Under the pieces are notes generated by a model that saw only the letters and a program-made list of their open reading frames with translations, was not told where the DNA came from and made no database searches. Shown piece after piece: positions 1 through 27,833 of a stretch of DNA of 40,067 nt (position 1 is the stretch's first letter; each line of letters begins with the position of its first letter). This DNA comes from a virus. Taxonomy: Duplodnaviria; Heunggongvirae; Uroviricota; Caudoviricetes. The position numbers and the translations under genes were made by a program. The stretch lies in IMG/VR virus record IMGVR_UViG_2585427781_000002. The stretch is one strand, 5' to 3'.

Positions 1-1871
1 GTCGCATAATTGCCAATCTCAACGTAAATATCATATGTATCGCCGGATGTGTTGATCCAGGCGAAATTCGTTAATCCGACGGCTGTACGCTTCCACAAAG
101 CCCCGGTAATTCCTTTGGGGTTTCCATTGCCTGCTCGTAGAACCAGTTCTGAAATGCCTGCCTGATGTGGGGAACCGACGTTGTAACCAGCGCCACCAAT
201 CAATGCGATGTAAACGATGGAACTCGCTTGTGGCATGGTAACCGTAGCCAGTTTGAACCACCCAGCCCCGCCAGAGAAAGACATCGTTACTGAATTTAAA
301 GTACCAATATCTTTCGGCGTTAATGTTATATCCGCAGTCAGTGCTTTTCCGTTAACTTTTCGGTTAGATGGCACCCTGCTATTCGCATTGTCATTGGCTG
401 CTTTAACTGCTTTTGGCGTTGCGGCCAGCGATTCACTGGTGCTATCAACAGCACTGCTAAGTTTCACAACACCTTTAGTTGTAAGGCTTGCGTCTTCCAT
501 CGCAACTGCACCGGCCATCTCTTCAGCACGATCAGCAGCAGCTTCCGCACGGGTCGCAGCGGATTCAGCAGTAGTTTTGCTCTGAGATGCTGCCGTCGCA
601 CTGCCTGCCGCCTCTGTTGCCTTCGTGGATGCCGTCGTGGCGCTGCTCTTCGCTGCTGACGCCTGTCTGGTCGCCTCATCTTTTGAAGCAGACGCAGATG
701 ATGCCGATGACGACGCCGAACTGGCTGACGATGCGGCAGCCGTTTTTGAGGATTCTGCGCTGGTTTCCGACGCTTTCGCGTTCGTTTCGGATGTCTTCGC
801 TGCGGAAGCAGACCTCGCTGCTGCGCTGGCCTGTTCAGTGGCTTCGCCAGCCTTCGTTGTGGCTGTTGAAGCAGACGATGCGGCGCTTTCTGCCGATTTT
901 CCGGCGGCGGTGGCACTGGCTGAGGCCTGCCCGGCACTTGTTGACGCTGCACTGGCAGACGACGCAGCCGCTGTTTTTGAGCCTGCCGCAGCCGAGGCGC
1001 TCTGTCCCGCTGCCGTTTCAGAAGACCTGGCGTTCGTCTCTGACGTTTTTGCCGCCTTCGCGGAATTTCCTGCCGCTGTTGCCGAGGAAGCTGCGCTACT
1101 GGCGCTCGAGGATGCGTTCGTTTCTGATGATTTTGCCGCCTCTTTTGAAGCCGCCGCATCCCGGGCTGAGGTGGCAGCTTCTGACGCTTTCGTAGTTGCG
1201 GTGGATGCAGAAGTGGCTGCTGATTGTTGTGACGCTGCAGCATTCGTTTCTGACGTTTTCGCGGCACTGGCACTGGTAGCTGCCGCGCTTTTTGAGGACT
1301 CTGCAGCGGCAGCACTTTTTGATGCTTCAGTAGCCTTTGTTGATGCCGTTCCTGCGCTGGAAGTCGCTGACTGAGCCGACGACGCGGCCTGTCCGGCTGA
1401 CGTGCTGGCTGCGCGTGCTGAGCCTGCAGCATCAGTCGCATGGGTTGCCGCCTCACGGGCTGATGTGCTGGCATCACTGGCTGACTTCTTCGCGGCTGCC
1501 GTGTTCTGTGCCACCACGGACGCGTTACGCGCCACCTCTTCCACCATCAGCTCAAAACGGCGCAGTGCCTCCGGACGGGCATCATCCTCCGTCATGGCAC
1601 CGAGAAAATCATTCAGCGTACCGGGTCGGGAATCTTCATACACTGTGATGGTCCCGGCATGTGACGGCGGGAATCCTTCCACCAACAGACTGACGCTGTA
1701 CTGACCGTACTCAACGTCCATACTGTAACGCCCGGCTTCATCCGGATTTTCAGATGCCAGCGTGTTCACCACCACCGTGGTACTGTTACGTTTTGCTTTC
1801 AGCTGGATTGTGCAGTTCTGTACCGGTTTTCCTGTGCCGTCTTTCAGTACACCTGAAATTTTTACTGCCAT
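1..1871 (-). CDS. stf: side tail fiber protein Stf, 5' portion (gene runs off the left edge)
   Basis: Minus-strand frame from ATG at 1871..1869 reads MAVKISGVLKDGTGKPVQNCTIQLKA... then long Ala/Ser/Thr-rich repeats (KTSETNA-type), matching the lambda Stf N-terminus as remembered. No in-window stop, so it is absent from the ORF track. Lies directly downstream of lom as in lambda. Confidence 0.75.
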   Translation of the reverse strand, partial: MAVKISGVLKDGTGKPVQNCTIQLKAKRNSTTVVVNTLASENPDEAGRYSMDVEYGQYSVSLLVEGFPPSHAGTITVYEDSRPGTLNDFLGAMTEDDARPEALRRFELMVEEVARNASVVAQNTAAAKKSASDASTSAREAATHATDAAGSARAASTSAGQAASSAQSATSSAGTASTKATEASKSAAAAESSKSAAATSASAAKTSETNAAASQQSAATSASTATTKASEAATSARDAAASKEAAKSSETNASSSASSAASSATAAGNSAKAAKTSETNARSSETAAGQSASAAAGSKTAAASSASAASTSAGQASASATAAGKSAESAASSASTATTKAGEATEQASAAARSASAAKTSETNAKASETSAESSKTAAASSASSASSSASSASASKDEATRQASAAKSSATTASTKATEAAGSATAASQSKTTAESAATRAEAAADRAEEMAGAVAMEDASLTTKGVVKLSSAVDSTSESLAATPKAVKAANDNANSRVPSNRKVNGKALTADITLTPKDIGTLNSVTMSFSGGAGWFKLATVTMPQASSIVYIALIGGAGYNVGSPHQAGISELVLRAGNGNPKGITGALWKRTAVGLTNFAWINTSGDTYDIYVEIGNYA

Positions 1872-1880
1872 ATTCACCCC

Positions 1881-1909
1881 ACAAAAAAGCCCGCCTGAAC
1901 CGGCGGGCT
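1881..1909 (-). terminator. candidate intrinsic terminator between lom and stf
   Basis: Inverted repeat AGCCCGCC (1888-1895) / GGCGGGCT (1902-1909) with a 6-nt loop; on the minus strand the hairpin is followed by a U-run (plus-strand A-run 1882-1888). Confidence 0.45.
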
Positions 1910-1935
1910 GTCATAACACTGTGTTACCTGGCTAA

Positions 1936-2535
1936 TCAGAATTTATAACCAACACCCACGATGAACCCGTCAGTGCGCCAGTCACCACTGCCGGAGCCTT
2001 CATAAGCGACATCAATGGCCACGGATTCGGTCGGGTTAAACTGCACGCCAGCTCCCCACGCCAGAGACGTGTTGCTGTGGCGACCGTCATCACTTCCGGT
2101 CAGCACATCGTGCTTTTTCCCCTTGTTGTCAGTTACGTGGAGATAATCCCCGGAGAAAGTCGACACACGGCTGTAAGCCACACCCGCCATCGCATACGCG
2201 CTGAACCATTCATTCACGCGCACAGACGGCCCCGCCATTACGCTGAACCAGCGGTTACGAACGGAATCTTCATGCCAGCGGGTATCGCTGTAACGGGTAA
2301 TCTGGCGATTCTTGTCTCCTGCATAGCTGAACGACGTCACCATCCCCAGTGTGTCCGTAAACTCATAACGGTATTTCACGTTAATCCCGTTCAGATCATC
2401 ACTGCCGGGAACGTTCGTCCGGGCATGAAGATACCCCGCGCTCAGCGTGGACTGATGTTCAGACGCCCATGCAGGCGCACCGGATACGGCCAGACAAATG
2501 GCTGCGGACAAAATGGCGGCATAAAGTTTACGCAT
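1936..2535 (-). CDS. lom: outer membrane protein Lom (Ail/Lom family)
   Basis: 199-aa ORF with a signal peptide ([24 protein letters not shown]) and beta-barrel-like sequence ending ...GVGYKF; sits between J and stf as in lambda. Confidence 0.9.
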
Positions 2536-2557
2536 AATTACCTCTCGCTTTTCTGCA

Positions 2558-2583
2558 ATAAAAAAGGCGTCATTTCTGACGCC
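2558..2583 (-). terminator. candidate intrinsic terminator downstream of J
   Basis: Stem GGCGTCA (2566-2572) / TGACGCC (2577-2583) with loop TTTC; on the minus strand the hairpin is followed by a U-run (plus-strand A-run 2558-2565). Lies between the J stop and the lom start. Confidence 0.5.
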
Positions 2584-2601
2584 CGTTCTGGGTTATAAAA
2601 T

Positions 2602-6003
<3,402 letters not shown>

Positions 6004-6060
6004 TCACGCTCCATAAACGACAAAACCGCCCGGAGGCGGTTTCACATAAAACATTTTGCA

Positions 6061-6708
6061 TCAGCGACCAATCACCACAACCTGACCACCATCCCCTTCG
6101 TCTGCCGTGCTGATCTCCTGAGAAACCACCCGCGACCCCACGCGCATTTCACCGTACAGAACAGGCAAAACATTGCCCTGGGCAACCATGTTATCCAGTG
6201 AGGAGAAATAGGTGTTCTGTTTGCCGTTATCTGTACTGGCTGCCGTGGGCGTCCTGGCTTTCGGTGCCAGCATCTGCGCCACTCCGCCCAGGATCATACT
6301 GGCCCCTGCCGCATACATGCCCGATACAGCCGCGGCACCCAGCCAGCCCACAGGGTTCCACCATGCCACCGCAATCAGCGCCGCCCCAAGCACCACCTGA
6401 AACACACCGCCACTTTTAGCTCCCGCCAGACGCGGCACGATGTGGATCACGGCACCATTTGCCAGCGGCTCATTAAGACGGGCAGATAATTCATTTTCGC
6501 CTGCATCACGCCCGGCAATGCGCACCTGATACCAGCCCTTATTCAGTTTCTGACGAAACGCCGGGAGCTGAGTGGCCAGCGCCCGGATGGCTTCGGCCCC
6601 CGTTTTCACACGAAGGTCGATGCGGCGGCCAAATCGTTGCAAATCCCCGTAAAGGCAGATGCGTGCCATGCCCGGTGACGCCAGAGGGAGTGTGTGCGTC
6701 GCTGCCAT
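6061..6708 (-). CDS. I: tail assembly protein I
   Basis: 215-aa ORF directly upstream of J, overlapping the K 3' end as in lambda; C-terminal hydrophobic Gly/Ala-rich segment. Confidence 0.8.
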   Translation of the reverse strand: MAATHTLPLASPGMARICLYGDLQRFGRRIDLRVKTGAEAIRALATQLPAFRQKLNKGWYQVRIAGRDAGENELSARLNEPLANGAVIHIVPRLAGAKSGGVFQVVLGAALIAVAWWNPVGWLGAAAVSGMYAAGASMILGGVAQMLAPKARTPTAASTDNGKQNTYFSSLDNMVAQGNVLPVLYGEMRVGSRVVSQEISTADEGDGGQVVVIGR

Positions 6709-7349
6709 TTGTCGGTATACCTCTCTCGTTTGCTCAGTTGTTCAGGAATATGGTGCAGCAGCTCGCCGTCGCCGCAGTAAATAGCGGCATGATTCGGCAC
6801 CGATGAACCAAAACAGCACAGCAGCACATCGCCCGGCTGCGCCGCTGACAACGGCACCTGATACAGCCCTGTAGCCTCCAGATTATCCAGATAGAGATTC
6901 TGACCGTTACGCCACCAGTCATCCCCGCGATGAAAATCCGGCATCTCAATCCCCGCCAGATGGTAAGCATCCCGGAACAGCGTGTAACAGTCCGTCACCC
7001 CGTGCTCAAAGCGCCGCCCGGTGAGATGCGGCACACAGCGGAATTTATGAATCTCACCCCGGCAGACCAGCCACCACGGCAAATCACTCTGCACCTGCAG
7101 CCGCCGGTCAGTCTCACTCAGCCAGGGCAGACCACCGGGGTGGCTGTGGACCAGCGCCACAATCTCACCCTGCATTTCTGCCCGCAGCCAGTCCTCCGGC
7201 GACATCCGGAAATACTCCTCCGGCTCACCGGAGATATTCACGCAGGGAAAATATCTTTCTCCCTCCGGCGTTCTCACCACGAAGCCGCACGACTCCGCTG
7301 GCGCACATCGCCGGGCGTGCGCCAGAATCGCTGATTCTGTCTCTGTCAT
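6606..7349 (-). CDS. K: tail assembly protein K (MPN/JAB plus NlpC/P60-like domains)
   Basis: 247-aa ORF with HSHPGG metal-binding motif and a downstream Cys/His peptidase-like region; position between L and I. The exact start is uncertain. Confidence 0.8.
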   Translation of the reverse strand: MTETESAILAHARRCAPAESCGFVVRTPEGERYFPCVNISGEPEEYFRMSPEDWLRAEMQGEIVALVHSHPGGLPWLSETDRRLQVQSDLPWWLVCRGEIHKFRCVPHLTGRRFEHGVTDCYTLFRDAYHLAGIEMPDFHRGDDWWRNGQNLYLDNLEATGLYQVPLSAAQPGDVLLCCFGSSVPNHAAIYCGDGELLHHIPEQLSKRERYTDKWQRRTHSLWRHRAWHASAFTGICNDLAAASTFV

Positions 7350-7354
7350 GGGAT

Positions 7355-8053
7355 TTACTGCGAAAGTTTGTTAATGGAAAGGAAGCCGCCAAAGTTGCCG
7401 ACGTTATTGCGGAACTTACAACCGCTCAGGCATTTGCTGCATTTATCCTTCGTGATATCGGACGTTGGCTGGTCATATTCATCCGCGACCGCCGGACCGT
7501 GATAACCGCACTCATCGCCGCGATAGGTCCAGGTGCAGGTGTTGGCCAGCATGATACGTCCCGGAAAAACAGCGCCGTCCGTTTCCGTCGGCGTGGCCAG
7601 TACAAAAGAGGCACTGACCGCGCTCAGTTCGCTGCACTGCTCGATGCGCCAGCGGCTGATCACCTCCTGCTCCGGGTCGGCGTCACTGTTTCCGTTGACG
7701 AAGTTCACCGCATCCAGAAAACGGGCGTAAACCTTACGCCGGACCACCGTTCCGCCGACCAGACTCTGCAGCTCTTCCGCCATCCCGGTGACCATACCGT
7801 GCAGGTTAGAAACCGTCAGTGTCGGACGGGCAGCACTGCCCTTGCCGTTCAGTTCAAATCCCGTCCCCTGAATGGGATACGGCTGATACTGTCGTCTCTG
7901 CCAGGTGACCGGCTCACCTTTTTCGTTCTGCTCATTACAGAAAAAATAACGTTCACCACCGACCTCTGTCAGATCGATTTCCCAGAGCACCACCTGGGCT
8001 GACTGAGTGAGGCGTGTCGTCTCATGATGTGTTTCCTGTGGAATATCCTGCAT
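7355..8053 (-). CDS. L: minor tail protein L
   Basis: 232-aa ORF, same length as lambda L, with C-terminal cysteine cluster (CSKCLSGCKF); conserved position. Confidence 0.9.
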   Translation of the reverse strand: MQDIPQETHHETTRLTQSAQVVLWEIDLTEVGGERYFFCNEQNEKGEPVTWQRRQYQPYPIQGTGFELNGKGSAARPTLTVSNLHGMVTGMAEELQSLVGGTVVRRKVYARFLDAVNFVNGNSDADPEQEVISRWRIEQCSELSAVSASFVLATPTETDGAVFPGRIMLANTCTWTYRGDECGYHGPAVADEYDQPTSDITKDKCSKCLSGCKFRNNVGNFGGFLSINKLSQ

Positions 8054-8062
8054 CAGAGCCTC

Positions 8063-8392
8063 CTATGCCACGACCTGTTCAAAATCTGCCGTTATGGTTA
8101 CCCACAGCGCCCCCACGCTTGCCGACCATTTACGACAAACCACCCTAATCGGTTTCCAGTCATAAGGTGGCGTCCACTGAAATGCGCGGACGCCACCGTG
8201 CCGTTCCAGAAAGGCTTTTAAAGATGGGTGTTCACATTTACGAACACGTATCGTCACGCTGTAAGTCGACAACTGGTTATTCAGTCCCGCCGCACGACGC
8301 TGTTCATAACCATCGCCCAGCTTCACTGTCACCACTTTCGGCTCTGATACCACATTCATATCCGGGCGCACTTTCCAGTGAAACGTCTCCAT
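8063..8392 (-). CDS. M: minor tail protein M
   Basis: 109-aa ORF, same length as lambda M, immediately downstream of H with a 1-nt overlap. Confidence 0.9.
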   Translation of the reverse strand: METFHWKVRPDMNVVSEPKVVTVKLGDGYEQRRAAGLNNQLSTYSVTIRVRKCEHPSLKAFLERHGGVRAFQWTPPYDWKPIRVVCRKWSASVGALWVTITADFEQVVA

Positions 8393-11076
8393 TACCGATA
8401 TGCTCCACTTAACCGACCACCATCACGGGCCTGCTGTTGCATAAAGTCCGCTGCTGCTTTTTTCCCGAGGTCATAAACCACCTTCAGGGCAGCCGGACCT
8501 ATCTGCCCGTTCGTGCCATCGTTATTGATCTCGATGTTGTACTGCGGGGCAAACATCGCCATACCTGAACCACCAATATCCGCCACAACCCCCAGCTTAC
8601 CGTCAGCACCACGACGCAGAGGCAGAATGGCTTCAGGCCCAGCTTCCCCCATCACACCTGCACCTTTTGCAAAAGCAAAAAACGTCGGACGGTTAACCAC
8701 CGTGCCACTGTAGCGACTCAAATCAGCAGACTGATAAACACCACCATCAGCATTGGGCGTCACACTGGCAGTTGCTGCACTCCCCCAGCCAAACGCCGAA
8801 CCAATCCCCTTAACTGTCTGCATCATGGACATCTGAGCCATGATTTTTGCCAGATCAGAAAGGAGCGAGGCGGTAAAAGATTTGAAGTTCAGTTTTCCGG
8901 TGGTACAGAATGTAGCCAGTGCATTACCTGCACTATTAAATGCCGCTGTAAGCATCTGCTCCGCAGTGCCTGCCGCATTATCCGCATCTGCCGTGAAATT
9001 CTGAAACGCCCGCATGGCACCGTTTTTCCAGTTACCCTGAGCAATTTCAAGCTGTTGCCAGTAACGGCGATTCTCATTCAGTTGCCTGTTCAGGCTCTCC
9101 GTCAGCGCCTGCTCGGCCTTTCTGTAGTCATCCGTGTTATATGTCCCTTTCTGCTCACTATCCCGCCTCAACTGCTCCAGCTGTTGCTGGTATTTCTGGC
9201 GAAGGCTCAGTTGTACCTGATATCGCTGCCGCTGCTGATCACCCATACCCACCGTGGCGATATCCAGGTCATGTTGCTGACGCTGAGCGCGCTCTTCTTC
9301 AGCCAGTTGACTGGTCAGCTGAATTGTTTTTTTCTTCAGATCGTTGAGTGCCGTCTGTTTCTGAAGCTCCTGCTGTTTTACATCCAGCAGCGTCAGTGCC
9401 TGAATCAGTTCATCTTTACGGGCCAGCACACTCTTTTCATCTGCCGTCAGTTTTTTCCCGTCCAGATCGCTGATGCGCTGCTGCAGAGCCAGAAGCTGTT
9501 TATGCGCTTCTGTCATCTTTTCAGTGGCAATGCCTGCTGACTGTCTTGCAGCAGCAATCTGTCCTTCCACCTGTGCCTGTTGCTGGCTGTACTGCAGCAA
9601 TAACCGGGTGGCCTCATCATTACGGGTTTCGCGTGTTTTTTTCTTACCGGATGCCAGGGCTTTCTCGTAACGTTCATTTTCACGTTGTATCGCCGCATCC
9701 CTGACAGCCTGATCGGCGTACTGCATGGCATTAATACGCGCAATTTCACGCTGATGTCGTGCTGCTTCCGTTTCATTCATCCGGTTCAGTGCAGCATTTT
9801 CAGCATTACGGCGTTTCTGTTGCTCCTGATAATTCCGCTCTGCCTGCTCTTTTGCATCCTGCAAATCCTTCTGGCGTTTTTTCTCCTGAAGATCGTTAAG
9901 ACGCTGCTGATCGTATTCAACCTGAGAAGATGATGCCGTCCAGGGGAGTCTTTTCGCCCGCGACACTTTCTCCTGTAAAGCGGCAATCTGTTCATCCAGC
10001 GAGTCTTCACGACCAATATTCATGGCCGCATCCCAGAAACGACTCCACAAATCAGACAGATACTTCAGCGTACTGCCAAGCGCATTGAGGTTATTATCAA
10101 TATCCGCAGTACGCCGACCGGTTTCCTCTGCCAGTGCAGACATGGCTATCCGTGCAGCATCACTGGACCGCCCCTGCTCCCCAAGGACGCGTATCTGCTC
10201 AAGCTGAGTGGCAGTAAGAAAATGCAGCTCATTGTCCAGAGCCTTCGCGGCATTTACAGGATCATCCTTCAGCCGCTTAAACTGATTTATGGTATCGCTG
10301 ACCGACTGGCCAACCGATCGCTCCATCTGTGCGGCAGCTCTCGCCACCATACCGATATCGTTTCCACGAAATGCACCACTCCCCACCACCTGAGCCAGCG
10401 CACCGGCTGCAGCATGTTGCGTGATACCATTCCCGGAAATAGCACGACTGAGCGTCCACAGCTGCCCGGCAGTAACTCCGGCATAATGCCCCGTCAGCGA
10501 CAACTGGCGGTTAAATTCTTCCCCCTCCTTCTGACCGTCATACCAGGCTTTACCCAGACCATAGACGGCCGCGGCAATACCGCCAATAACCCCGCCAAGC
10601 ATCATGCCTTTCGGTGACATCAGTGTGTCTATCCATCCGGCACGGTTAGCCAGCGTTATCCCGGATCCCCTCAGCGCCCCTAAATTGCCGCGGGCCAGTT
10701 CACCTATCAGAACGCCTATCTCCTGGCGGGCTGCTGCACTTTTCAGACCCAGCGAATGCGTGGCTTTTCCTGCCTGCTCCATTTTGCGGATATACACTTC
10801 TGCAGCACTGCTTACCCCCAGCTGGGCTGCCTTAGCACGAAGCAACTCAGAAGATGAAAGATTCTGGCGGGTTGCCTGCTCTTTAAGCTGACGGATAAAC
10901 GCCACTTTCTGTCGGGTAGCCTCTTCCTCAGCCTGTGTAAGAACACGGGTTTTCGCCGTAACCTCAGAAATCAGCGCCAGATAATCCTGCTGACCAATCC
11001 CGCCACTGTTTCTGGCCTGTCGGATCTGCTGCTGAATACGCTGTAATTCCTGCAGCCCCGCACTGGCCTGTTTCAC
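8392..11076 (-). CDS. H: tail tape-measure protein H, portion downstream of an in-frame TAG
   Basis: 894-aa ORF with long coiled-coil Q/R/E-rich repeats and C-terminus ...NNDGTNGQIGPAALKVVYDLGKKAAADFMQQQARDGGRLSGAYR, matching the lambda H C-terminus as remembered. The track ORF begins at a GTG right after the amber codon. Confidence 0.85.
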   Translation of the reverse strand: MKQASAGLQELQRIQQQIRQARNSGGIGQQDYLALISEVTAKTRVLTQAEEEATRQKVAFIRQLKEQATRQNLSSSELLRAKAAQLGVSSAAEVYIRKMEQAGKATHSLGLKSAAARQEIGVLIGELARGNLGALRGSGITLANRAGWIDTLMSPKGMMLGGVIGGIAAAVYGLGKAWYDGQKEGEEFNRQLSLTGHYAGVTAGQLWTLSRAISGNGITQHAAAGALAQVVGSGAFRGNDIGMVARAAAQMERSVGQSVSDTINQFKRLKDDPVNAAKALDNELHFLTATQLEQIRVLGEQGRSSDAARIAMSALAEETGRRTADIDNNLNALGSTLKYLSDLWSRFWDAAMNIGREDSLDEQIAALQEKVSRAKRLPWTASSSQVEYDQQRLNDLQEKKRQKDLQDAKEQAERNYQEQQKRRNAENAALNRMNETEAARHQREIARINAMQYADQAVRDAAIQRENERYEKALASGKKKTRETRNDEATRLLLQYSQQQAQVEGQIAAARQSAGIATEKMTEAHKQLLALQQRISDLDGKKLTADEKSVLARKDELIQALTLLDVKQQELQKQTALNDLKKKTIQLTSQLAEEERAQRQQHDLDIATVGMGDQQRQRYQVQLSLRQKYQQQLEQLRRDSEQKGTYNTDDYRKAEQALTESLNRQLNENRRYWQQLEIAQGNWKNGAMRAFQNFTADADNAAGTAEQMLTAAFNSAGNALATFCTTGKLNFKSFTASLLSDLAKIMAQMSMMQTVKGIGSAFGWGSAATASVTPNADGGVYQSADLSRYSGTVVNRPTFFAFAKGAGVMGEAGPEAILPLRRGADGKLGVVADIGGSGMAMFAPQYNIEINNDGTNGQIGPAALKVVYDLGKKAAADFMQQQARDGGRLSGAYR

Positions 11077-11088
11077 ACTGTCAATCTA

Positions 11089-11466
11089 ACGATAAAACGC
11101 AGCAGCCGCTTTATCCTGAGCCTCCGCCAGAGCCATGGCCTGCGCCTGTTCATCGCGCATTTTCTGGCTCAGCGCCTCCATGCGCTGGCGGGTTTTCTCC
11201 ACCTCGCGGGCCATGCGTTCATGAGCCTGTGCGTTCTTCTCCACCGTCTGCGCATGGACGGAGGCGGCTGTTGCAGCCGAAGAAGCCGCCTGCGTTGTCT
11301 GCCGGGCGGCCTGAGTCTGACGCTCCATAAAACGCTGCATACGGGCAGAAGACCGTTCTGCATCGCTGGCGGCACCATTCAGAAGGTTTTTGATACGGGG
11401 AATTTCATTTTTAAACTCTGCCGCATCAATCCCCAAATCAATGACCAGGTTGGCTATCTGGTCCAT
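11089..11466 (-). CDS. H: tail tape-measure protein H, N-terminal portion upstream of the in-frame TAG (11086-11088)
   Basis: Same reading frame as the 894-aa ORF, separated only by TAG. From ATG at 11466, MDQIANLVIDLGIDAAEFKNEIPRIKNLL... aligns with the lambda H N-terminus (..GDLVVDLSLDAARFDEQMARV..). Confidence 0.7.
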
Positions 11467-11767
11467 AACGCACACCTCCGGAAATACCTTCTCCAAGATG
11501 CATCAGTTCTTCGTCCGTTCGCTCCGGTATCCCGTTCTCTTCCGGTAAAAGGCTGAAATCAGCCACCGCAGCATCACTGCTGCCGGACACCATTCTCACG
11601 ATCAATGCCTTCAGCGAGGCAAACTGCGCATCCATCCACACATCACTGAAGCTCTGCATCCGGAAATAATCGCCCCACTCACCAAGCTCAGTGGCCGACA
11701 TTTCCGACAGCATCCGCCGCCAGTCTGCCCGCCGGAACTCCCGGGCAAGCCGCATGACAAACTGCAT
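11438..11767 (-). CDS. T: T segment of the tail assembly chaperone G-T (expressed by -1 frameshift from G)
   Basis: ORF in the -1 frame relative to G; its frame stays open upstream through the G stop region; position between G and H. Confidence 0.65.
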   Translation of the reverse strand: MQFVMRLAREFRRADWRRMLSEMSATELGEWGDYFRMQSFSDVWMDAQFASLKALIVRMVSGSSDAAVADFSLLPEENGIPERTDEELMHLGEGISGGVRYGPDSQPGH

Positions 11768-11775
11768 TTCCCGCG

Positions 11776-12165
11776 TCAGGACTTTTCCGGCGTCAGCGCC
11801 TCATGCTCATCATCCCCGGCATTATCAATGGCCCCCATACCGCTCAGCGACAGAACCATCTCCGCCCCCGCACCCAGGGCATCATACGACCATGTTGTAA
11901 TAACGGATGCGCAAAGCGTCTCTACATCCTTAGACTGATCCGCATTCCACAGTGAGCGGGAAACCAGCCAGGCATTGATATCCATCCCCATCCGCAGAAA
12001 AGCAATCTGTCGTTCAGCCTCCGGCAGTTCTCCCTCCCCGGCATCAAACTTTGCCGTTCGCTGCTGAACAAACGCCAGATATTCAATTCTCTGCAGCCCG
12101 GACAGCTCACTGAGCACCACGGACTGTTTTTCATAATTAAACGTGCCCTGTTTCAGAAACATCAT
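11776..12165 (-). CDS. G: tail assembly chaperone G
   Basis: Start at MMFLKQG... (ATG at 12165 or 12162); ...VLSELSGLQRIEYLAF resembles lambda G; ends EALTPEKS* with a slippery-like motif two codons before the stop. Confidence 0.8.
   Translation of the reverse strand: MMFLKQGTFNYEKQSVVLSELSGLQRIEYLAFVQQRTAKFDAGEGELPEAERQIAFLRMGMDINAWLVSRSLWNADQSKDVETLCASVITTWSYDALGAGAEMVLSLSGMGAIDNAGDDEHEALTPEKS
11782..11790 (-). other. candidate -1 programmed ribosomal frameshift site for G-T
   Basis: Minus strand reads CCG GAA AAG TCC TGA at the end of G; shifting -1 on the GAAAAG stretch enters the T frame (…GCC GGA AAA GTC CTG…). Analogous in position to the lambda G GGA AAG site but not an exact canonical heptamer. 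Confidence 0.45.
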
Positions 12166-12222
12166 GTTCTCCACCTGCAAAAAAGCCCCGGATAACCGGG
12201 GCAAATGATGAGTATCGTCCTG

Positions 12223-12972
12223 TTAACCTGCGGCGCTGACAGCCACCGCAGCCACGGCCACAAAATCGCCGTCAGAAGTCATGCCCACAATGCTGACACT
12301 GCCCTGCTTCACGCCTTTCACCGTGGCCACAAGCCCGTTCAGGGTCACCGTGGCAGTCTGTGGATCTGTCGAATGTACACTGATCGCTTTGTCACTGGCT
12401 CCGTCAGGTTTTACTGTAAAGGTCAGCGTGGTGGTTGCTCCCACTTTTACACTGGCAGATGCTGGTGCCACCGTCAGCCCGGTAACGCTCACTGTTTCAG
12501 TGCCTTCCTCTGCCAGATGCGGACGCCCCACACCGCTGATTTTCACTGTGCGGGTCATCACGTCTTTTGAGGCAATGGTTTTACCCAGTGAGCTCAGCCA
12601 GCCACGGAAAACATCAACAGTGCCGTTGGGATATTTGATACGAAACGCGCAGACTTCACCGGAGTCGAACAACTGAACCAGTTTTTTCTGCCCGCTGTCA
12701 CCCGGACGCCAGGCCAGCGTCGCCGAAGTATCACCGACGGATTTCTGCCCCTGGGTTGTCGTTTTCCAGTCTGCATCTTCATCATCGAGATAAGTGTCAT
12801 CTTCTGCATCAGCGGTCATTTCGCCAGGTTGCAGATCCTTCACCATCGCAAGACGCAGCCAGTCAGTGTCCGATAAAGGGTTCGCAAACGCATCGCCCTT
12901 GCCGGTGTACATCCAGAACGTCGTTCCCGCACCTTTCGTTTTTGCCAGTGGATTTGGTGTGGTCATTGCCAC
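12223..12972 (-). CDS. V: major tail protein V
   Basis: 249-aa ORF; ...AKTKGAGTTFWMYTGKGDAFANPLSDTDWLRLAMVKDLQPGEMTA...YLDDEDADW... closely parallels lambda V; C-terminal Ig-like region. Confidence 0.9.
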   Translation of the reverse strand: MAMTTPNPLAKTKGAGTTFWMYTGKGDAFANPLSDTDWLRLAMVKDLQPGEMTADAEDDTYLDDEDADWKTTTQGQKSVGDTSATLAWRPGDSGQKKLVQLFDSGEVCAFRIKYPNGTVDVFRGWLSSLGKTIASKDVMTRTVKISGVGRPHLAEEGTETVSVTGLTVAPASASVKVGATTTLTFTVKPDGASDKAISVHSTDPQTATVTLNGLVATVKGVKQGSVSIVGMTSDGDFVAVAAVAVSAAG

Positions 12973-12977
12973 CTCCT

Positions 12978-13379
12978 TTAATTCGTGTACGTGATCTGGT
13001 ACGTGATTTCCGCCATCGCCCAGGTGGCCATCTCATTATCACGTTGATAGTTAAAACCGAGAGGGATCAGGGTGTCGATGAGTCCGGAAAGTGCCGGTAT
13101 ATCATTCAGAGCCGGGAAAATGGTGCTCTCCATCCACATATCCAGCTCTGAATCCGGTGCCTGTGCCCGGATGAAGACAGCAATATGCAGAACAGCCTGC
13201 CAGTCATCTTCATCCGTCATTTTTCCGGTGTACTGAGCATCACTCAGCCACACCGCCACGGCAGGCAGTTCCTGCGCATCAATAAATGCCGGAAGCCCGT
13301 CAAAAAACGTGGCGCTGTCTCCACACTGTTCCCGAAGGCGTGCCAGTACGGCCTGGCGGATTTGTGTATGTCGGTTCAT
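12978..13379 (-). CDS. U: tail terminator protein U
   Basis: MNRHTQIRQAVLARL...ATFFDG...PAVAVWL...ELDMWMES...DIPALS... aligns with lambda U; start taken at the internal ATG 13379 (track start 13391 is also an ATG). Confidence 0.85.
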   Translation of the reverse strand: MNRHTQIRQAVLARLREQCGDSATFFDGLPAFIDAQELPAVAVWLSDAQYTGKMTDEDDWQAVLHIAVFIRAQAPDSELDMWMESTIFPALNDIPALSGLIDTLIPLGFNYQRDNEMATWAMAEITYQITYTN

Positions 13380-13954
13380 CGGGTCAGCCATAACCTCAGT
13401 TGTTGTTTCAGTGCATACCCCAGCTGTTTCGGCATTTCCGCAGCAATAATGCGGTCGCGGGCATCTTCAAATGCCTGTGTCAGCGGTCCGGACAGCGGGA
13501 CTTTCACCACATCAATGGGGTAACGATTTTTGCCATCAATACGCCGCATCACATGCCAGCGACCATTCGCCAGTTGCTGAATAAACGCATCCCGGAAAAG
13601 ATATTTACCCACCTTCAGCACACTGCCACGGTACTGCAGTTTTCCACCACGCCGGGCCAGTCTGACCCGGGCTGTCCCCAGCTTAATAGCGGGCAGATTG
13701 CCCCGGTTAACGCGGATCCTGGCCGTCATTTTTCCTGACGGACTGGCTTTAAACACCCGGACACGCTGACGTACCAGTTTCAGGGGGATCCCTTTCACCT
13801 GGTTATCTCCCGCAACGGTATTCCCGGCAACCTGCCGGGTGGCGACCGAGACCGCTTTCTGTGCCACACGGTTTATCGCCCATGCGCTGGCCTGTGGCAC
13901 CATACGGGTATCAAGGCTGTTCAGATTACGGATGGCATTCTCAAGCCCCTTCAT
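13376..13954 (-). CDS. Z: tail completion protein Z
   Basis: 192-aa ORF, same length as lambda Z; MKGLENAIRNLNSL...AINRVAQ...NGRWHVMRR..GKNRYPIDVVK.. parallels lambda Z. Confidence 0.85.
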   Translation of the reverse strand: MKGLENAIRNLNSLDTRMVPQASAWAINRVAQKAVSVATRQVAGNTVAGDNQVKGIPLKLVRQRVRVFKASPSGKMTARIRVNRGNLPAIKLGTARVRLARRGGKLQYRGSVLKVGKYLFRDAFIQQLANGRWHVMRRIDGKNRYPIDVVKVPLSGPLTQAFEDARDRIIAAEMPKQLGYALKQQLRLWLTR

Positions 13955-13965
13955 CCCACACCTCT

Positions 13966-14241
13966 TTACTCAATAAAGATCATTGGCTTACCGTTAAAAC
14001 GTTCATGCCGTGTGACCGTCCATTGTTGTCCGTCATAAACAACGCGATCCCCGCGCCGTGGGCGGTATCCCGAAGAAAACACCACCAGAGAGACCGCAGG
14101 TCCGGACAGAGCATTCAGCTCTGCCAGTGTTTCTCCCGGGATCACAGTCATATCGACATCATTAATCGAGGCTGTCTTTCCCATCTTTCTGACCGTGATC
14201 GCATCCATACGCGCTGCCAGCCGGGAAAAGGGATCAGACAT
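13966..14241 (-). CDS. head-tail joining protein (FII-like position and pattern)
   Basis: 91-aa ORF immediately upstream of Z; DPF...GD..W.V pattern loosely resembles lambda FII. Assignment is mostly by position. Confidence 0.5.
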   Translation of the reverse strand: MSDPFSRLAARMDAITVRKMGKTASINDVDMTVIPGETLAELNALSGPAVSLVVFSSGYRPRRGDRVVYDGQQWTVTRHERFNGKPMIFIE

Positions 14242-14557
14242 TGAGTTTTACCGGCACTTCTTCTGCACTGGTTCCGGCATCTGCCCAGACAACCCCGACC
14301 AGCGGATCAGAGCCGCTGTTAGTCAACTGAACTTTTCCGGACTTCAGATAAACCTTCTTACCCGTTTTCATGTCATCCGTTTTCAGCTTAGGCAGCATAA
14401 ACACACCTTCGGTCAGGCCGTCGCCTGTTTCACCCTGTGGAATATCGGTCAGCGCTACCGCAAAAACATCACCCACCTGCACCAGATCTCCGCTGCTGAT
14501 GGCTGCACTGGCAACAATCGCCACCGTTTTTCCTTCTTCTACAAAATTCTTTGCCAT
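14234..14557 (-). CDS. small capsid-associated protein (DUF2190-like), downstream of the major capsid gene
   Basis: Start at ATG 14557 (MAKNFVEEGKTVAIV...) with GGAGA RBS; the track start at 14602 is a TTG. Small Gly/Val-rich protein typical of genes following HK97-type capsid genes. Confidence 0.5.
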   Translation of the reverse strand: MAKNFVEEGKTVAIVASAAISSGDLVQVGDVFAVALTDIPQGETGDGLTEGVFMLPKLKTDDMKTGKKVYLKSGKVQLTNSGSDPLVGVVWADAGTSAEEVPVKLNV

Positions 14558-14600
14558 AACTGTCTCCGCACAGCCCCGTTCAGGGGCTGATTTCAGGTAC

Positions 14601-14620
14601 AAAAAAAGCCCTTACGGGCC
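14601..14620 (-). terminator. candidate attenuator/terminator after the capsid gene
   Basis: Hairpin GCCC-TTAC-GGGC (14608-14619) followed on the minus strand by a 7-nt U-run (plus-strand A-run 14601-14607). Confidence 0.4.
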
Positions 14621-14643
14621 ATCAGAGTTGTTGTCTGCGACGT

Positions 14644-16602
14644 TTACGCCGTACATTTCACCAGACCGCGGTGATCAACTGGCGCGACACCGGCGTCAAT
14701 ACGCACTTTCGTTGTCACGCCATCCACACTGAAGCCCTCCATCTGATCAATATATGGCGTATCCACACCGTTGAGATAAGCCACTTCAATCGTATCGGAG
14801 CCTTTTGACGCAGCCAGGTAGAAGGTGGTCTGGCTGTTATCATCAAGACGAGGCTCTGCAATAACGGTCGCAAAATCTTTCACCGGGTTAATAATACCGG
14901 CGTTAATGTCAGCCCCCTTGACACTTGAGGAGCGAATGACCTGGTTAGCAACAGACTCCATCGCCGTCGGTACCAGTACGAACGCAGGACGAATATTCAG
15001 ATGACGCTCCCCCTCTTTCTGAACGCGCATCAACTGGCGGGCTTTATCCAGCGATTCCACGTCCATTGCAGCGCTCTCCAGTACGTTTGCATGTTTCGCT
15101 TTATCGAACAGACTTACATTATCTGTGGAGATTTTCGGGTTAGACGTCAGAATGGCATAAACCAGATCGGCAATAGTGGATTTCGCCGCACGGCCCAACT
15201 TCATCGGGACATCGGTCAGCATATTCAGATAATCATTGATAATGGCCTGACGGGTGATACTGAACAGCTCGCCATAGGTCGCCAGTGCAATAGTGGCCTG
15301 TTTATCTCCGGTGGTGACGTATTTATATTCCGCCCCTTCACGCACCTGACGCAGAGCACTGAAGCCCCCCATACCCACACGATGGGCAATTTTAAAATCA
15401 GACAACTGACCTGTCCGCGTCCACTGTTCATAGGTTTCAGGGGCATCTTCCCAGCCCTGCAGAATGGCTTTGTTCGCAACATCCAGCAGAATATTACCGA
15501 AGTCAGACGTACTGTGTGTGAACGCCGCACCGACCATCTGCATCGGGTTATAACTGGAAACCCCAATACCCCGTTCAGTCAGTGACATACGGGCATATTC
15601 ACGCAGGGTCATCCCGTTGTAGACATTATCACGTTCGGTTTTTTCAAATCCGGCACGCGCCATCAGCGCCTGGCGGATCCCGTCCCCCACAAAATTACCG
15701 TTACCGGCATAAATATGAGCCGGGGTATTTTTATTGGATGGCGTGGACTCGCGCCCCATCTCGTTCAACAGCTTTTCGCGGGCCTGCTCCAGCGAACATT
15801 CAGGATCGGCAAGACACTGAGCCTGCAGCGTCTGATAACGCCCGCCAAACATGGCAAACAGATCATTAATACCGTTTACACGCGCTTTTTGCTCTGCCAG
15901 TACCTGCGCACGGATGCTGTTTTCATCCACCACGGGTGCTGCTGCCTGCACTGGCGTCCGGGAGGCTTCAGGTTCATTATCCTGTACGCGTGGAGCACTG
16001 TTGCGTGGCGGAGTAATCATGTTTCGAATGGATTCCGGCATCTTTTTAAATTCCTCTGTACGTTTTGACTGAATACATGCCATTGCCTTAACGGCTGGCG
16101 TTACCTGATCAGCAAATCCATGTGCCAGACATTCGGCACCGGACATCCAGGTCTCATCCGCCAGCATGGCAGCAATTTCATCGGTGGTTTTCCCGGTTTT
16201 CTGTGCATAAGCGGGTAACAGAACCGCCTCAACTTTATCGAGCAGGTCGGCATAGGTGCGCATGTCCTCCGCATCACCGCCCGTAAAGCCAAATGGTTTA
16301 TGAATCATCATGAAGGTGTTTTCCGGCATAATGACCGGGTTTCCCACCATCGCAATGACCGACGCCATTGATGCCGCCACACCGTCGACATAAACGGTAA
16401 TGGACGCACCATGTGTTTTCAGCGCATTAAAAATGGCGATGCCTTCAAAGACATCGCCACCCGGTGAATTGATATGGAGATTAATGTGGGTGATATCGCC
16501 CAGTGCATTCAGATCACTGATAAACTGCTTCGCTGTAACACCCCAGAAACCAATCTCGTCATAAATATAAATATCCGCGTCACTCTGGTGACCAGCCTGC
16601 AT
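14644..16602 (-). CDS. prohead protease (ClpP/S49-like) fused to an HK97-fold major capsid protein
   Basis: Start at ATG 16602 (MQAGHQSDADIYIYDEIGFWGVTAK...); N-terminal region has the ClpP-like serine protease pattern (INSPGGDVFEG), followed by an Ala/Gln-rich linker and a C-terminal capsid-like domain. The track ORF extends upstream over the portal 3' end. Confidence 0.8.
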   Translation of the reverse strand: MQAGHQSDADIYIYDEIGFWGVTAKQFISDLNALGDITHINLHINSPGGDVFEGIAIFNALKTHGASITVYVDGVAASMASVIAMVGNPVIMPENTFMMIHKPFGFTGGDAEDMRTYADLLDKVEAVLLPAYAQKTGKTTDEIAAMLADETWMSGAECLAHGFADQVTPAVKAMACIQSKRTEEFKKMPESIRNMITPPRNSAPRVQDNEPEASRTPVQAAAPVVDENSIRAQVLAEQKARVNGINDLFAMFGGRYQTLQAQCLADPECSLEQAREKLLNEMGRESTPSNKNTPAHIYAGNGNFVGDGIRQALMARAGFEKTERDNVYNGMTLREYARMSLTERGIGVSSYNPMQMVGAAFTHSTSDFGNILLDVANKAILQGWEDAPETYEQWTRTGQLSDFKIAHRVGMGGFSALRQVREGAEYKYVTTGDKQATIALATYGELFSITRQAIINDYLNMLTDVPMKLGRAAKSTIADLVYAILTSNPKISTDNVSLFDKAKHANVLESAAMDVESLDKARQLMRVQKEGERHLNIRPAFVLVPTAMESVANQVIRSSSVKGADINAGIINPVKDFATVIAEPRLDDNSQTTFYLAASKGSDTIEVAYLNGVDTPYIDQMEGFSVDGVTTKVRIDAGVAPVDHRGLVKCTA

Positions 16603-16648
16603 CCTGAACCAGGAATTATTCTTCGGACTGGTCGTCGGTGTACTGCGG

Positions 16649-18124
16649 CTACTGTCGTTTCGTTGCGGCACTGCTGCCTCCTTTATCACTGGCCGGATCG
16701 GTATCAAATACCAGGTCCAGCTTGCGGTTTTCATCAATTTCGGCCTTGCGCCGACGTTTGACATCATCCGGATTACGACCACCTGCACGTACCCAGTCTG
16801 ATTCTGTCGCCGCTCCACCACGAATCTGGATTTTCCAGGCCTCAGCCTCCTTAACAGGGTCAATCCACGGCATCACCGGTCCGGAATACACCGCGGTATA
16901 CAGTGAAGAACGGTCAAGATCGCGGGGTAGCCTGATAACACCGGATGCCACAGCCTGTTTCAGCCAGGCACGATACATCGGGCGGGTGACGGCACCAATA
17001 AACCAGTCCTGCAGGATCAGGTAGCCATCAGTGGATTCAACCAGCTCCTGACGCTGGGCGCTGTAAGTGCCGTTATAGTTGCGCGCTGTACTGGAAAAAC
17101 TCAGACGACTGCCCGCCGCCACGGCACGCAACTGAGCATTACGAAAAGTTTCAAGGTTAGGATTTGGGCGATCCGACTTCACCATTCCGATTTCTTCGCC
17201 GGGTTTCAGATCGTCGTAAATAATGCCTGGCTGAATGGTAAGCTCGCGTTCATTCTCCTTGCTGTCATTACCATCCGTTTCATAGCTCTGTCCGTCGCCT
17301 TTGCGGATGTACATCCCCAGAGCAGCGGCGACCCTTGCTGCAGTCAGCTCAGAATCTTCATACTCTTTCAGGGCGCTGAGGCGGATCAGCACACCGGACA
17401 ATAAAGACGTCCCGCGCATCTGGTGCAGACGGCGAACAAATTTAAGATGCAGCATTCGCTCTGCATCCACTTCTTTGGTTTCCATCTGCCGTCCGGATAC
17501 AGGACGACTTTTATACACCAGATATTTTTCGGGACGCCCCCAGTCATCAACAAACACGCCCTGATTCAGCCTGTTGCTCTCATCACTGGTCATGGGAATA
17601 AAGTCCGGCTCGAGCGCCTCCAGCCAGAAATGAACACCGGCAGAAGGCGTCAGGCTGTTTATGCGCCCGGAAACCATCTGGGCAAACACCTCACCATCGC
17701 GCAGCCAGGTACGAAGCATCAGACGTTCCAGCATCGGACGGGTAAACTGCCCGGTGACTTCCGGGCTGACAGACCATTCACTCCATCGGGTGCGAATCTC
17801 CGCAGCCAGGTCACGGGCAATGGCCCCATTGCGTAATACCGGATGTGGCTCGACAATAATCCCGTTTTTCCCCACCACCCGTTCTTCCAGCTTGTCAAAT
17901 ACACCAATAACCAGATCGTGGTTGTTATCAAGGTAACGGGCCTGCTCACGTAACGACACGGCCCCGTACTGGCTTAACTGGTCGGCAGTTCGGTTCTCCC
18001 GTCGGGCTTTGTGTGTCCGCGTCGTTTTTACGGCCTCATAAGCCTGGATCACCGCACGGGAACGCAGCCTTGCCGCTTTCCATCCTGGTGAAAAAACGCC
18101 AATCACATCATCAAGAATTGCCAT
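16649..18124 (-). CDS. B: portal protein (lambda B family)
   Basis: Start taken at ATG 18124, overlapping the W stop (MAILDDVIGVFSPGW...); track start 18196 is further upstream. Size and position between W and the capsid gene fit a portal. Confidence 0.85.
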   Translation of the reverse strand: MAILDDVIGVFSPGWKAARLRSRAVIQAYEAVKTTRTHKARRENRTADQLSQYGAVSLREQARYLDNNHDLVIGVFDKLEERVVGKNGIIVEPHPVLRNGAIARDLAAEIRTRWSEWSVSPEVTGQFTRPMLERLMLRTWLRDGEVFAQMVSGRINSLTPSAGVHFWLEALEPDFIPMTSDESNRLNQGVFVDDWGRPEKYLVYKSRPVSGRQMETKEVDAERMLHLKFVRRLHQMRGTSLLSGVLIRLSALKEYEDSELTAARVAAALGMYIRKGDGQSYETDGNDSKENERELTIQPGIIYDDLKPGEEIGMVKSDRPNPNLETFRNAQLRAVAAGSRLSFSSTARNYNGTYSAQRQELVESTDGYLILQDWFIGAVTRPMYRAWLKQAVASGVIRLPRDLDRSSLYTAVYSGPVMPWIDPVKEAEAWKIQIRGGAATESDWVRAGGRNPDDVKRRRKAEIDENRKLDLVFDTDPASDKGGSSAATKRQ

Positions 18125-18342
18125 CAGACCCCCGCCAGCCGATACCCGGGATGCCCCCGTCGTCGTGTAATCAGAGCCGCAAGGCGGCGCTCCCACTCCT
18201 GCCGTCCCTGCCTGATCTCAGATAAGTTTTCCATGGTCATCTGCTGACCATTAAAGGTGACGGATTTTCCGTCCAGCACCGCCATTTCAGCTTCCGTATA
18301 ACGCTGAATCATGGCTTCGATATCATTCTGGTTCATAACCAT
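18124..18342 (-). CDS. W: head-tail joining protein W
   Basis: 72-aa ORF between terminase and portal; C-terminus ..ITRRRGHPGYRLAGV resembles the lambda W C-terminus (..RRRGPAGFYV). Confidence 0.7.
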   Translation of the reverse strand: MVMNQNDIEAMIQRYTEAEMAVLDGKSVTFNGQQMTMENLSEIRQGRQEWERRLAALITRRRGHPGYRLAGV

Positions 18343-20432
18343 CCTCCGGAAGTCAGCCAGGGGTTAACATCGTCAGTTACTGTTTTCTTCCGTTTTTGTT
18401 TTTTAACAGGCGTGGATACCGGTTCCGGTGAGGATGACGGTTCGGTACTGTCCGGGACACACTCCAGCCAGGTTTCCCGGCTCGCCCACTCCGGTGCATC
18501 CGGCCAGCGGATCTTTTCGTATCCATGCAGAATGACCAGAGCCTCGGCATACACCATCAGGTCAAAAGCTTCGTTGGCACCGCGACCCGGCTTACTCCAT
18601 TTCCCGTCACTGCTCCGCTCTTCATACGTCAGTTCGTCGTAAAACCAGCTCCCCAGCCAGTCAGGGAAATGCACATAGCCGGGACCTGGCGAGTCACGCC
18701 ATAACGCGTTATTCACCCGGTCTTTCAGTGCATCCGTCTGAAGAAGCCAGAGCGGCACATCACCTGCGGCCTGCGCCCGTCGGCCCGTTCGTCCGGTGTT
18801 ATCAGGGAATGTACGGGTGATCAGTTTTGCGCGCCGGATGCTGTCGCCCTTAAACAGGTAAATACGTTTACCAAGGCCATCACGACGGCAACGACGCCAG
18901 AATTTATAGGCATTATCAGTGACCCCGTCTTCACCGCCGGAGTCCACCGCCATTGCCATCAGTCGCATTTGTTGAGAAGGATCGGAGGCCAGCGGCCAGC
19001 TTTTATGAAAAACATCCGTCAGCAGGACATCCCAGTCTTCCGGATAGCTGGCCGGATCAATTCGCTGGCTCTCCCCGTCGCTGTCACCGCGCAATGACTG
19101 CGTGATGTTGTAACGATCAATAATCCAGCGTTCGCCACGGCTGCCATAGCCCGTTACCTGAACCACAAAACGGCGATGACGTCCCGCCTGCACATCCACT
19201 GTCGCCACAAGAAAATTAACGCCATCTGGCACACTGCGGGAAGGAACTGGCTCTGCCCGCTGCTCAAGCAGTTCACTTTTTCGTTGCTCCATGCTGGCGC
19301 GGGGAAGATAAGGTAATCCCCAGTCGGTGTTGATAACCGCCCTGAGTGTTTCTTCACTTCCTGTCGCTTCATACTCCTGTTCTGCAGTCAGTAATTTGTA
19401 AACCAGTTGCGCCCAGGTCTGATACGCAGCAGCTGGCCCTTCCATCCAGAAACTGGCGATACGGGAGCGGCGCGGTTCACCGGAAACGTTGCCGTTACAA
19501 TCAATGACCTGACCTTCACGCAACCAGACTCCTGCACTATTGAGCTCACGCTTTTTCTCCGCAGTGATAATGCCGCTGCAGTGCGGGCAAAGTAGATACG
19601 CCGCCTCACTGGCTTTAAAGGGATCCGGTTCATTACGGTAGCCGGTCATGGCATCCATGGCTGGCTGAAAATATTCACCGCAGTGCGGACATGGCCAGTA
19701 CCAGCGGCGGCGGTCACCACGATTGTAAAGGGAAAGAATACCAGTCGTCGGTGGCGCTTCATGAGGCGACTTACGTCGCCATTTGCTGTCGCAGATGTCA
19801 CGTCCCGGCGAGCTCTCCACCAGAGTCATCCCGGCGGACATAAATGTGGTGGTACGTTTTGAGGCCAGGGAGAAACCATCACCCTCGCTGTCGATATTCT
19901 CCGGAAAACGGTCGTAATCGGTTAAGGCGACAAACCGGTAATCCGACGACGACATAATGTTGACCGAGGGCCAACCAATTTTAAGGAACGAGCCATCCCT
20001 GAACGTCTTATCATGGACATTATTGTCATTACGACGTGGACTCATTCTTTTCTTTACCGCCGCACTGCTTCTGAACGTTCTGTCGAGGCGCTTTTTTGAA
20101 TGCTCGCGGGCCTTATCTTCGGTCATCTGCACAACGAGCATGTCCGAAGGATCGCAAACGATGGTATAGACAATCCATCCATCGATCAGACCAATGGTCT
20201 TCCCTGTTCGCGCAGGACCAACAAAAATCACCGCATCGTATTCACGCGATGCCAGGCAGTTCATGGGCTCAATGATGTAGGGTGTCAGTTCAGGATCCCA
20301 TGGCACCGAGTTACCAGCCCCCTTGGGAACACGCATGAATTTTTTAACAGCCTCCGAAATCGGCATGCGACGTGGTGGGGAAAATCCTGCCGATATGTCC
20401 CTTCCCAAATTTCGGGCTGATGAAAAACCCAT
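18333..20432 (-). CDS. terminase large subunit (lambda GpA family)
   Basis: 699-aa ORF; Walker A-like GPARTGKT, zinc-binding CPHCGEYF...CPHC as in lambda A, C-terminal nuclease region. Confidence 0.9.
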   Translation of the reverse strand: MGFSSARNLGRDISAGFSPPRRMPISEAVKKFMRVPKGAGNSVPWDPELTPYIIEPMNCLASREYDAVIFVGPARTGKTIGLIDGWIVYTIVCDPSDMLVVQMTEDKAREHSKKRLDRTFRSSAAVKKRMSPRRNDNNVHDKTFRDGSFLKIGWPSVNIMSSSDYRFVALTDYDRFPENIDSEGDGFSLASKRTTTFMSAGMTLVESSPGRDICDSKWRRKSPHEAPPTTGILSLYNRGDRRRWYWPCPHCGEYFQPAMDAMTGYRNEPDPFKASEAAYLLCPHCSGIITAEKKRELNSAGVWLREGQVIDCNGNVSGEPRRSRIASFWMEGPAAAYQTWAQLVYKLLTAEQEYEATGSEETLRAVINTDWGLPYLPRASMEQRKSELLEQRAEPVPSRSVPDGVNFLVATVDVQAGRHRRFVVQVTGYGSRGERWIIDRYNITQSLRGDSDGESQRIDPASYPEDWDVLLTDVFHKSWPLASDPSQQMRLMAMAVDSGGEDGVTDNAYKFWRRCRRDGLGKRIYLFKGDSIRRAKLITRTFPDNTGRTGRRAQAAGDVPLWLLQTDALKDRVNNALWRDSPGPGYVHFPDWLGSWFYDELTYEERSSDGKWSKPGRGANEAFDLMVYAEALVILHGYEKIRWPDAPEWASRETWLECVPDSTEPSSSPEPVSTPVKKQKRKKTVTDDVNPWLTSGGWL

Positions 20433-27641: not shown

Positions 27642-27833
27642 TTCCTCCCCCTTGACTAATTCATTAACACATAAACTTTGTAGTGCACGGACTAAATTGC
27701 CTTTCTGGCTTCATCACTGACAATTTTTCTGTTATTGACTATTCCTAATATAGTAGGAAAGTTCTTTAAGTGATCGGTCGTACTCATCTATCTTTCATAC
27801 TTACTCTCAACTATCAAAAGTACAGGATTTATT

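Follow-up and report, generated by a model that had tools for sequence, protein, structure and literature searches.

Two open reading frames that resemble the two ends of the lambda tail tape-measure protein gpH follow one another on the minus strand of a 40,067-nucleotide stretch of Caudoviricetes DNA (the whole of which is called the window here), with an amber codon between them. The question is what this codon represents: the boundary between two real genes, a stop that is read through or suppressed, a mutation that has broken a single gene, or simply an error of the draft sequence. We have analyzed the structure of the interrupted gene, the codon found at the same position in its relatives, the strains that carry the TAG and the condition of the prophage in which it is found.

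A single tape-measure gene with an internal stop

The triplet at positions 11086–11088 reads cta on the plus strand, that is, TAG on the coding (minus) strand. Translation from 11520 down to 8392 gave a frame that is continuous except for one internal stop. The initial annotation had placed the 136-codon and the 894-codon frames around this TAG in the same frame and had joined them into one H-like gene of roughly 1020 codons; the list of open reading frames and the translation agree with it, and the exact figure is 1024 codons. The 136-aa frame of the list (11086–11496, minus strand) begins at a TTG picked mechanically. The gene actually starts with the ATG at 11466, annotated as the beginning of the tape-measure gene in every collinear relative and preceded by a Shine-Dalgarno sequence, GGAGG, at 11475–11479 (minus strand); the duplex between the anti-Shine-Dalgarno and the 20 nt upstream of this ATG amounts to -10.8 kcal/mol. 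Counted from there, the gene extends over 8392–11466 (minus strand, 1024 codons plus the final stop) and is made of 126 codons (11089–11466), the TAG as codon 127 (11086–11088) and 897 further codons. The protein encoded by the first 126 codons has been deposited as KEL07849.1, with the title 'putative tail length tape measure domain protein', and under three further accessions, which bear the name 'Escherichia coli 4-203-08_S3_C2'. The frame of 894 codons that follows the TAG (8392–11076, minus strand) begins at a GTG that is codon 131 of the gene. This frame results from calling ORFs mechanically, although gene callers list the 894-aa piece as a product of its own in the contigs that carry the TAG.

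Both pieces could be aligned to lambda gpH, the N-terminal one over residues 4–56 (gpH 5–57, 34% identity, E 1e-9) and the C-terminal one over residues 159–894 (gpH 122–853, E 8e-48), the latter alignment extending to the INNDGTNGQIGPAALK motif that both proteins have at the C-terminus. The C-terminal piece also scored well above the cut-offs of three Pfam families, TMP_2 (PF06791, 168.4 bits, cut-off 30.2), TMP_4 (PF24622, 63.6 bits, cut-off 27) and Tape_meas_lam_C (PF09718, 84.8 bits, cut-off 23), and the same three domains are found in the intact orthologue. The 126-residue piece matched no Pfam family at its cut-off. These alignments bear out the earlier description of an H-like N-terminus upstream of the stop and an H-like C-terminus downstream of it. 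The gene order is also that of the family, the G/T chaperone pair preceding the tape-measure gene and M, L, K, I and J following it, both in collinear relatives and in the contigs that carry the TAG.

In the relatives, the same coordinates are occupied by a single intact 1024-aa 'phage tail tape measure protein' (WP_001459760.1), the exact sequence of which was found on 440 contigs. It had been considered that the first 126 residues might normally be a separate gene in homologues. We rejected this possibility, since WP_001459760.1 and the genes of the phages are undivided, all orthologues being single genes of 1021–1024 codons. With its full-length frame interrupted at codon 127, the gene of the window would thus be a pseudogene of the gpH tape-measure family rather than a functional member of it.

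Directly upstream are the G and T tail-assembly chaperone genes (11438–12162, minus strand), T being in the -1 frame relative to G and overlapping the start of the tape-measure gene by 29 nt. The end of G (window 11776–11800, minus strand) reads CCG GAA AAG TCC TGA. The expected G-T frameshift would need a site of the A-AAG type, unlike the canonical G GGA AAG of lambda, and annotations give G and T as separate genes.

The ancestral codon and the distribution of the TAG

Of the 3,075 bases of the closest orthologue, that of E. coli WP8-S17-ESBL-05, all but 2 are shared with the window. One is C instead of T in codon 127 (CAG, glutamine, instead of TAG) and the other is G instead of A in codon 884 (alanine instead of threonine). 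Three isolated phages, phi458, vB_EcoS-813R6 and mEp460, with tape-measure genes 98.6, 99.1 and 95.4% identical to that of the window, all read TAT CGT CAG ATT GAC around codon 127. The comparison of this codon among orthologues, recommended in the initial annotation, therefore gave a glutamine codon one base away, and the lesion can be assigned to window base 11088, where a transition has changed C to T on the coding strand; the base that follows the stop (+4) is A. If the cdtI gene and that coding for WP_001459760.1 are also considered, the intact orthologues have 95–99.9% nucleotide identity with the window over 3,075 nt and, as in the window, are flanked by G, T, M and L, but they have CAG and one uninterrupted frame where the window has the TAG, together with the A884T replacement.

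We have searched for the TAG allele in several collections. A 71-mer centred on the TAG was used as query for 5,426 complete E. coli genomes, and none of the 1,809 records that contain the flanking sequence had the allele. Neither did any of 17 phage records. A 42-mer with Y at the variable base was used for IMG/VR, where the TAG was absent from all the viral contig matches listed (at least 120). The allele was not found either in 117 metagenome contigs or in the only GTDB species-representative contig, belonging to Escherichia ruysiae, that has CAG; viral, metagenome and GTDB contigs taken together, there was no TAG among at least 238 matches listed. Since CAG was the codon in all the sources of this census, the TAG is best described as a derived and rare C>T transition.

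The same data bear on the possibility of a programmed stop. Like in the case of the Q-beta A1 protein, in the window an in-frame stop precedes functional downstream domains. However, programmed readthrough stops are conserved among relatives and none of the orthologues examined, be they from genomes, phages or contigs, has this one, so that a conserved or programmed stop was discarded. From these comparisons, the TAG appears to be an ordinary nonsense mutation of the kind expected in prophage decay and not a recoding site.

Inheritance of the amber allele

An exact look-up of the 126-aa product retrieved 18 contigs that carry it. Among the matches listed there were nine loci, four from NCBI assemblies and five from independently assembled SRA runs, and the 42-mer containing the TAG was identical in 9/9 of these further contigs. 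Among the carrier assemblies are GCA_000714055.1, GCA_958328675.1 and GCA_002991975.1. The carriers 4_203_08_S3_C2 and C3 come from samples of April 2009 and 6_175_07_S4_C1 (accession JORB, locus L006) from a sample of July 2009. Their names follow the scheme of the study of Tanzanian children by Richter et al. (PMC6222053), in which the isolates were commensal, and the three strains are given in its supplementary table as ST5518, phylogroup A and O38:H26, from two different children. In the SNP table of the late region, carriers share the lineage alleles at window 2138 and 3862 as well as the TAG, and they differ from each other by few SNPs over the shared late region.

The alignment of the tape-measure copies has just two variable columns. 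A second substitution within the amber lineage, GCA>ACA (A884T), is located at window 8817 (minus strand), downstream of the stop. The carrier SRR31249508 has the TAG and keeps the ancestral G at 8817, indicating that the amber would have arisen once and that A884T came afterwards. The TAG allele has thus been inherited and, to judge from these contigs, has diversified since.

A sequencing or assembly error in the draft contig, CAG being the real codon, was among the options of the initial annotation. We consider it extremely unlikely. In favour of an error, just one base differs, the draft was assembled from short reads, and four SNPs in 20 kb that are private to the window might be errors as well; nevertheless, the identical TAG was found in independent assemblies and runs, it segregates with other SNPs of the lineage, and a systematic error would be expected in the about 1,800 genomes that share the flanks, where there was none. 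The private bases are located at window 3825, 4508, 15056 and 18132. All four are nonsynonymous in comparison with the 12 other copies (they affect D726 and G498 of J, E539 of the capsid protein and G69 of a small ORF), the other TAG carriers also differ at these sites, and they could be either real mutations or errors of draft assembly.

A Qin-type prophage with other lesions

The window is 99.9% identical to prophages adjoining rspB in phylogroup-A-like strains, and its comparison with that of strain EA13 gave 26 SNPs and zero indels over 39,829 nt. The annotation of the 99.9%-identical prophages of EA13 and IBS28 includes as cargo dicB, ydfD, hokD, rem, ydfU, cspI, ynfN, gnsB, essD and rrrQ. 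In the window itself, Rfam detected above the gathering score the DicF sRNA (36190–36241, plus strand), the sok antitoxin RNA of the hokD locus (30923–31097, minus strand) and a cspA-type thermoregulator upstream of cspI (22835–23251, minus strand). This marker cargo, with the DicF RNA and hokD/sok, is also that of Qin in E. coli K-12, and so is the position next to rspB seen in the 99.9%-identical relatives. K-12 Qin has lost its morphogenesis genes. Unlike it, the element studied here still has its head and tail region in full and is being disabled by point lesions and IS insertions. By its gene content we would classify it as a full-length lambdoid prophage of the Qin type.

Some other features of the element can be mentioned. 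The head protease and the major capsid protein are encoded at 14644–16671 (minus strand) by one gene, annotated in relatives as a 675-aa ClpP-like protease/capsid fusion. Between the Q antiterminator and the lysis cassette (26682–28358) there are 'moron' genes, which by annotation of the 99.9%-identical relatives code for a YbgA-family protein (minus strand) and a lipocalin-family protein (plus strand). The late region (window 1–20000) is present over at least 80% of its length in 1,790 of the 5,426 complete E. coli genomes, mostly with 95–99% identity.

Two lesions besides the amber were found. Only a 5' remnant of the integrase gene is left (38 codons, 39716–39828, plus strand), and its collinearity with the int genes of EA13 and IBS28 is lost beyond 39829; in both of these strains int is intact (1,281 nt). 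The remaining sequence (39829–40067) is the left end of an IS1 inserted in int, a 100% match to IS1A of EA13, and 239 nt of the IS are present before the contig stops. In addition, blastn against IBS28 revealed the junction of a 311-bp deletion at 33143–33144, at the 3' end of the phage O gene that codes for the replication initiator. The last 285 nt of O and 26 nt downstream are missing, while O of IBS28 is intact with 966 nt. The deletion is common to the nearest relatives with CAG, EA13 and 2018-06-4CC: EA13 aligns to the window without indels and therefore has it too, and its O is annotated as 'incomplete; missing C-terminus'.

With int::IS1, the 3' deletion of O and the amber in the tape-measure gene, this prophage carries several of the lesions typical of defective elements, the first two of which we assume to be inactivating. 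By parsimony, the O deletion most likely predates the amber, because it is shared by relatives that still have CAG, and the prophage would have been already impaired in replication. The earlier proposal of a nonsense mutation and a tail-defective prophage was supported, with the correction that the TAG would not be the original cause of the defectiveness, given the probably earlier deletion in O and the disruption of int.

Decay in sister prophages and pattern of substitutions

Sister prophages that are at least 99.9% identical bear knock-outs of their own. A premature stop in J, Q922* (CAG>TAG), was found in EA13 (L002 36717–40115) and 2018-06-4CC (L017 2602–6000), and the latter has another in TerL, W612* (TGG>TGA; L017 18333–20000). 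RCAD0514 has a 1-bp frameshift in a Z-like tail gene (L016 13376–13953), and in 6_175_07_S4_C1 there is an IS1 inside TerL (L006 60–1944). In IBS28 and AHM9C68I the 20-kb late region is intact.

Among 13 copies of the 20-kb late region there were 36 coding SNPs, 21 nonsynonymous, 12 synonymous and 3 nonsense. Under neutrality, the same genes would be expected to give 72.9% of missense, 3.5% of nonsense and 23.6% of synonymous changes (N/S 3.2). The observed N:S of 24:12 did not differ significantly from 3.2:1 (P = 0.12), and the excess of nonsense changes (3/36) was not significant either (P = 0.13). In the divergence of the tape-measure gene from viable phages the N:S values were 14:31 for phi458 and 48:62 for mEp460, so that recent SNPs are richer in N than phage divergence (Fisher P = 0.002 and 0.02, respectively), although the SNPs are few and an enrichment in N over old divergence is always seen in young polymorphism. 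Recent substitutions are thus near-neutral in their pattern, something that is suggestive of relaxed selection on the late region. The tape-measure gene contains 93 CAG codons and 127 transition-to-stop paths, the most of the late region, and for this reason an amber in it would be the likeliest single knock-out.

Expected consequences for translation and tails

The reading that we favour, with a probability of about 0.88, is the neutral pseudogenisation of the tape-measure gene in a vertically inherited prophage that is decaying. A spontaneous CAG>TAG change (Q127amber) would have taken place in a prophage freed from selection for virion production. By standard E. coli termination, RF1 would end translation after residue 126 and release the N-terminal fragment, the sole product expected at normal level. 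The 897 codons that remain, which encode every tape-measure domain that can be recognised and the C-terminal helix by which the protein is anchored in the tail tip, would not be translated at useful levels; there would be no tail initiator and hence no tail would be assembled. The mutation would be neutral for the host and would have been passed down one E. coli lineage that includes ST5518. Since late transcription of lambdoid phages is Q-antiterminated, the polarity of the amber on M-J would probably be weak.

The sus (amber) mutants of lambda gene H stop early, make no tails and are rescued by a suppressor. The window is similar in that a sense codon has become an amber in an essential phage gene of the H type, with an early stop and no tails as the expected outcome, and also in that the wild-type protein would be recovered with a suppressor that inserts Gln, the ancestral codon being CAG. 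Unlike the laboratory mutants, this one is natural and resides in a chromosomal prophage of commensal isolates, in an element that is also damaged in int and O. The absence of tails is expected by analogy with lambda, where gpH forms a trimer inside the tube, is attached to the tip through its C-terminal helix and sets the length of the tail (PMC10721106). As for the N-terminus, phage TP901-1 needs the first 154 residues of its tape measure to be infectious (PMC5099701), and it is on this analogy that a similar need in a lambda-type gpH is proposed.

Alternative explanations

Ribosomes can re-initiate near a stop, and there is an in-frame GTG 9 nt downstream of the TAG. The N-terminal piece plus a re-initiated C-terminal piece of 894 residues, or the latter alone, might then build a slightly shorter tail; all the Pfam tape-measure domains are within the C-terminal piece and two products are reported by gene callers. 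We regard such a split gene as very unlikely. The GTG lacks a Shine-Dalgarno (+0.4 kcal/mol, compared with the value of -10.8 at the real start) and no ATG or start preceded by a Shine-Dalgarno was found within the 60 codons after it. For both reasons, efficient restart at this GTG was rejected and an 894-aa product is unlikely to be made efficiently. Besides, such a product would lack the N-terminus, the conservation of which reaches as far as lambda gpH; the corresponding region is essential in the siphophage TP901-1, and none of the orthologues examined is split. A different possibility, with a comparably small chance of being correct, is that inactivation was selected. Loss of the tape measure might, for example, halt the release of infectious particles or tail-like bacteriocins, or save resources, which would be domestication and not drift. 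The nonsense SNPs exceed their expected share and several independent knock-outs affect morphogenesis genes while cargo genes are intact. Nonetheless, that excess lacks significance, the knock-outs are scattered across genes and most relatives have all their late genes intact, a tail defect gives the host no protection from lysis on induction, and the TAG is confined to one lineage.

Suppression or readthrough is a further alternative. If the host had an amber suppressor, or if natural tRNAGln leaked through the stop, full-length tape measure would still be made and the gene would be conditionally functional. Near-cognate tRNAGln is among the tRNAs that read UAG in E. coli (PMC4333366), and either this or supE, which also inserts glutamine, would restore exactly the wild-type residue at a CAG>TAG site. 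The +4 base is A and not the U of strongly terminating contexts (PMC5289835). This context and the reading of UAG by tRNAGln, with glutamine as the wild-type residue, make a leak plausible, and by analogy a trace of full-length wild-type protein is likely to be produced. Few copies would be needed, as the tape measure acts as a trimer in each tail (PMC10721106), and the TAG allele has persisted for years within its lineage. Still, a neutral mutation carried on the chromosome would be expected to persist just as well. The 40-kb window contains no tRNA gene, so that a phage-borne suppressor tRNA was discarded, and a literature search for natural amber-suppressor E. coli in such strains gave nothing relevant. 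A stop found in no orthologue is no designed feature, and rescue of the tape measure would not restore a phage with int::IS1 and a truncated O. Positive evidence for the suppressor or readthrough option of the initial annotation was therefore not obtained, and we consider it improbable. A more specific version is that of a natural 'leaky sus' allele, kept at a trickle of full-length tape measure by tRNAGln readthrough or by a supE-type suppressor of the ST5518 lineage. If true, the production of tails would be throttled and not abolished, but this appears slightly more doubtful still.

Implications

The case has little importance beyond annotation. The 126-aa and 894-aa products should be replaced by one tape-measure pseudogene with an internal stop, and the prophage should be scored as defective, as it has int::IS1 and a truncated O besides the amber. 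The TAG may be used as a marker of the lineage of the ST5518-related clone. The locus is also a small example of how prophages that look complete decay, since near-identical copies in different E. coli strains have each suffered a different single knock-out, the genes affected being those of the tape measure, J, TerL and Z, with insertion of IS1 as another cause.
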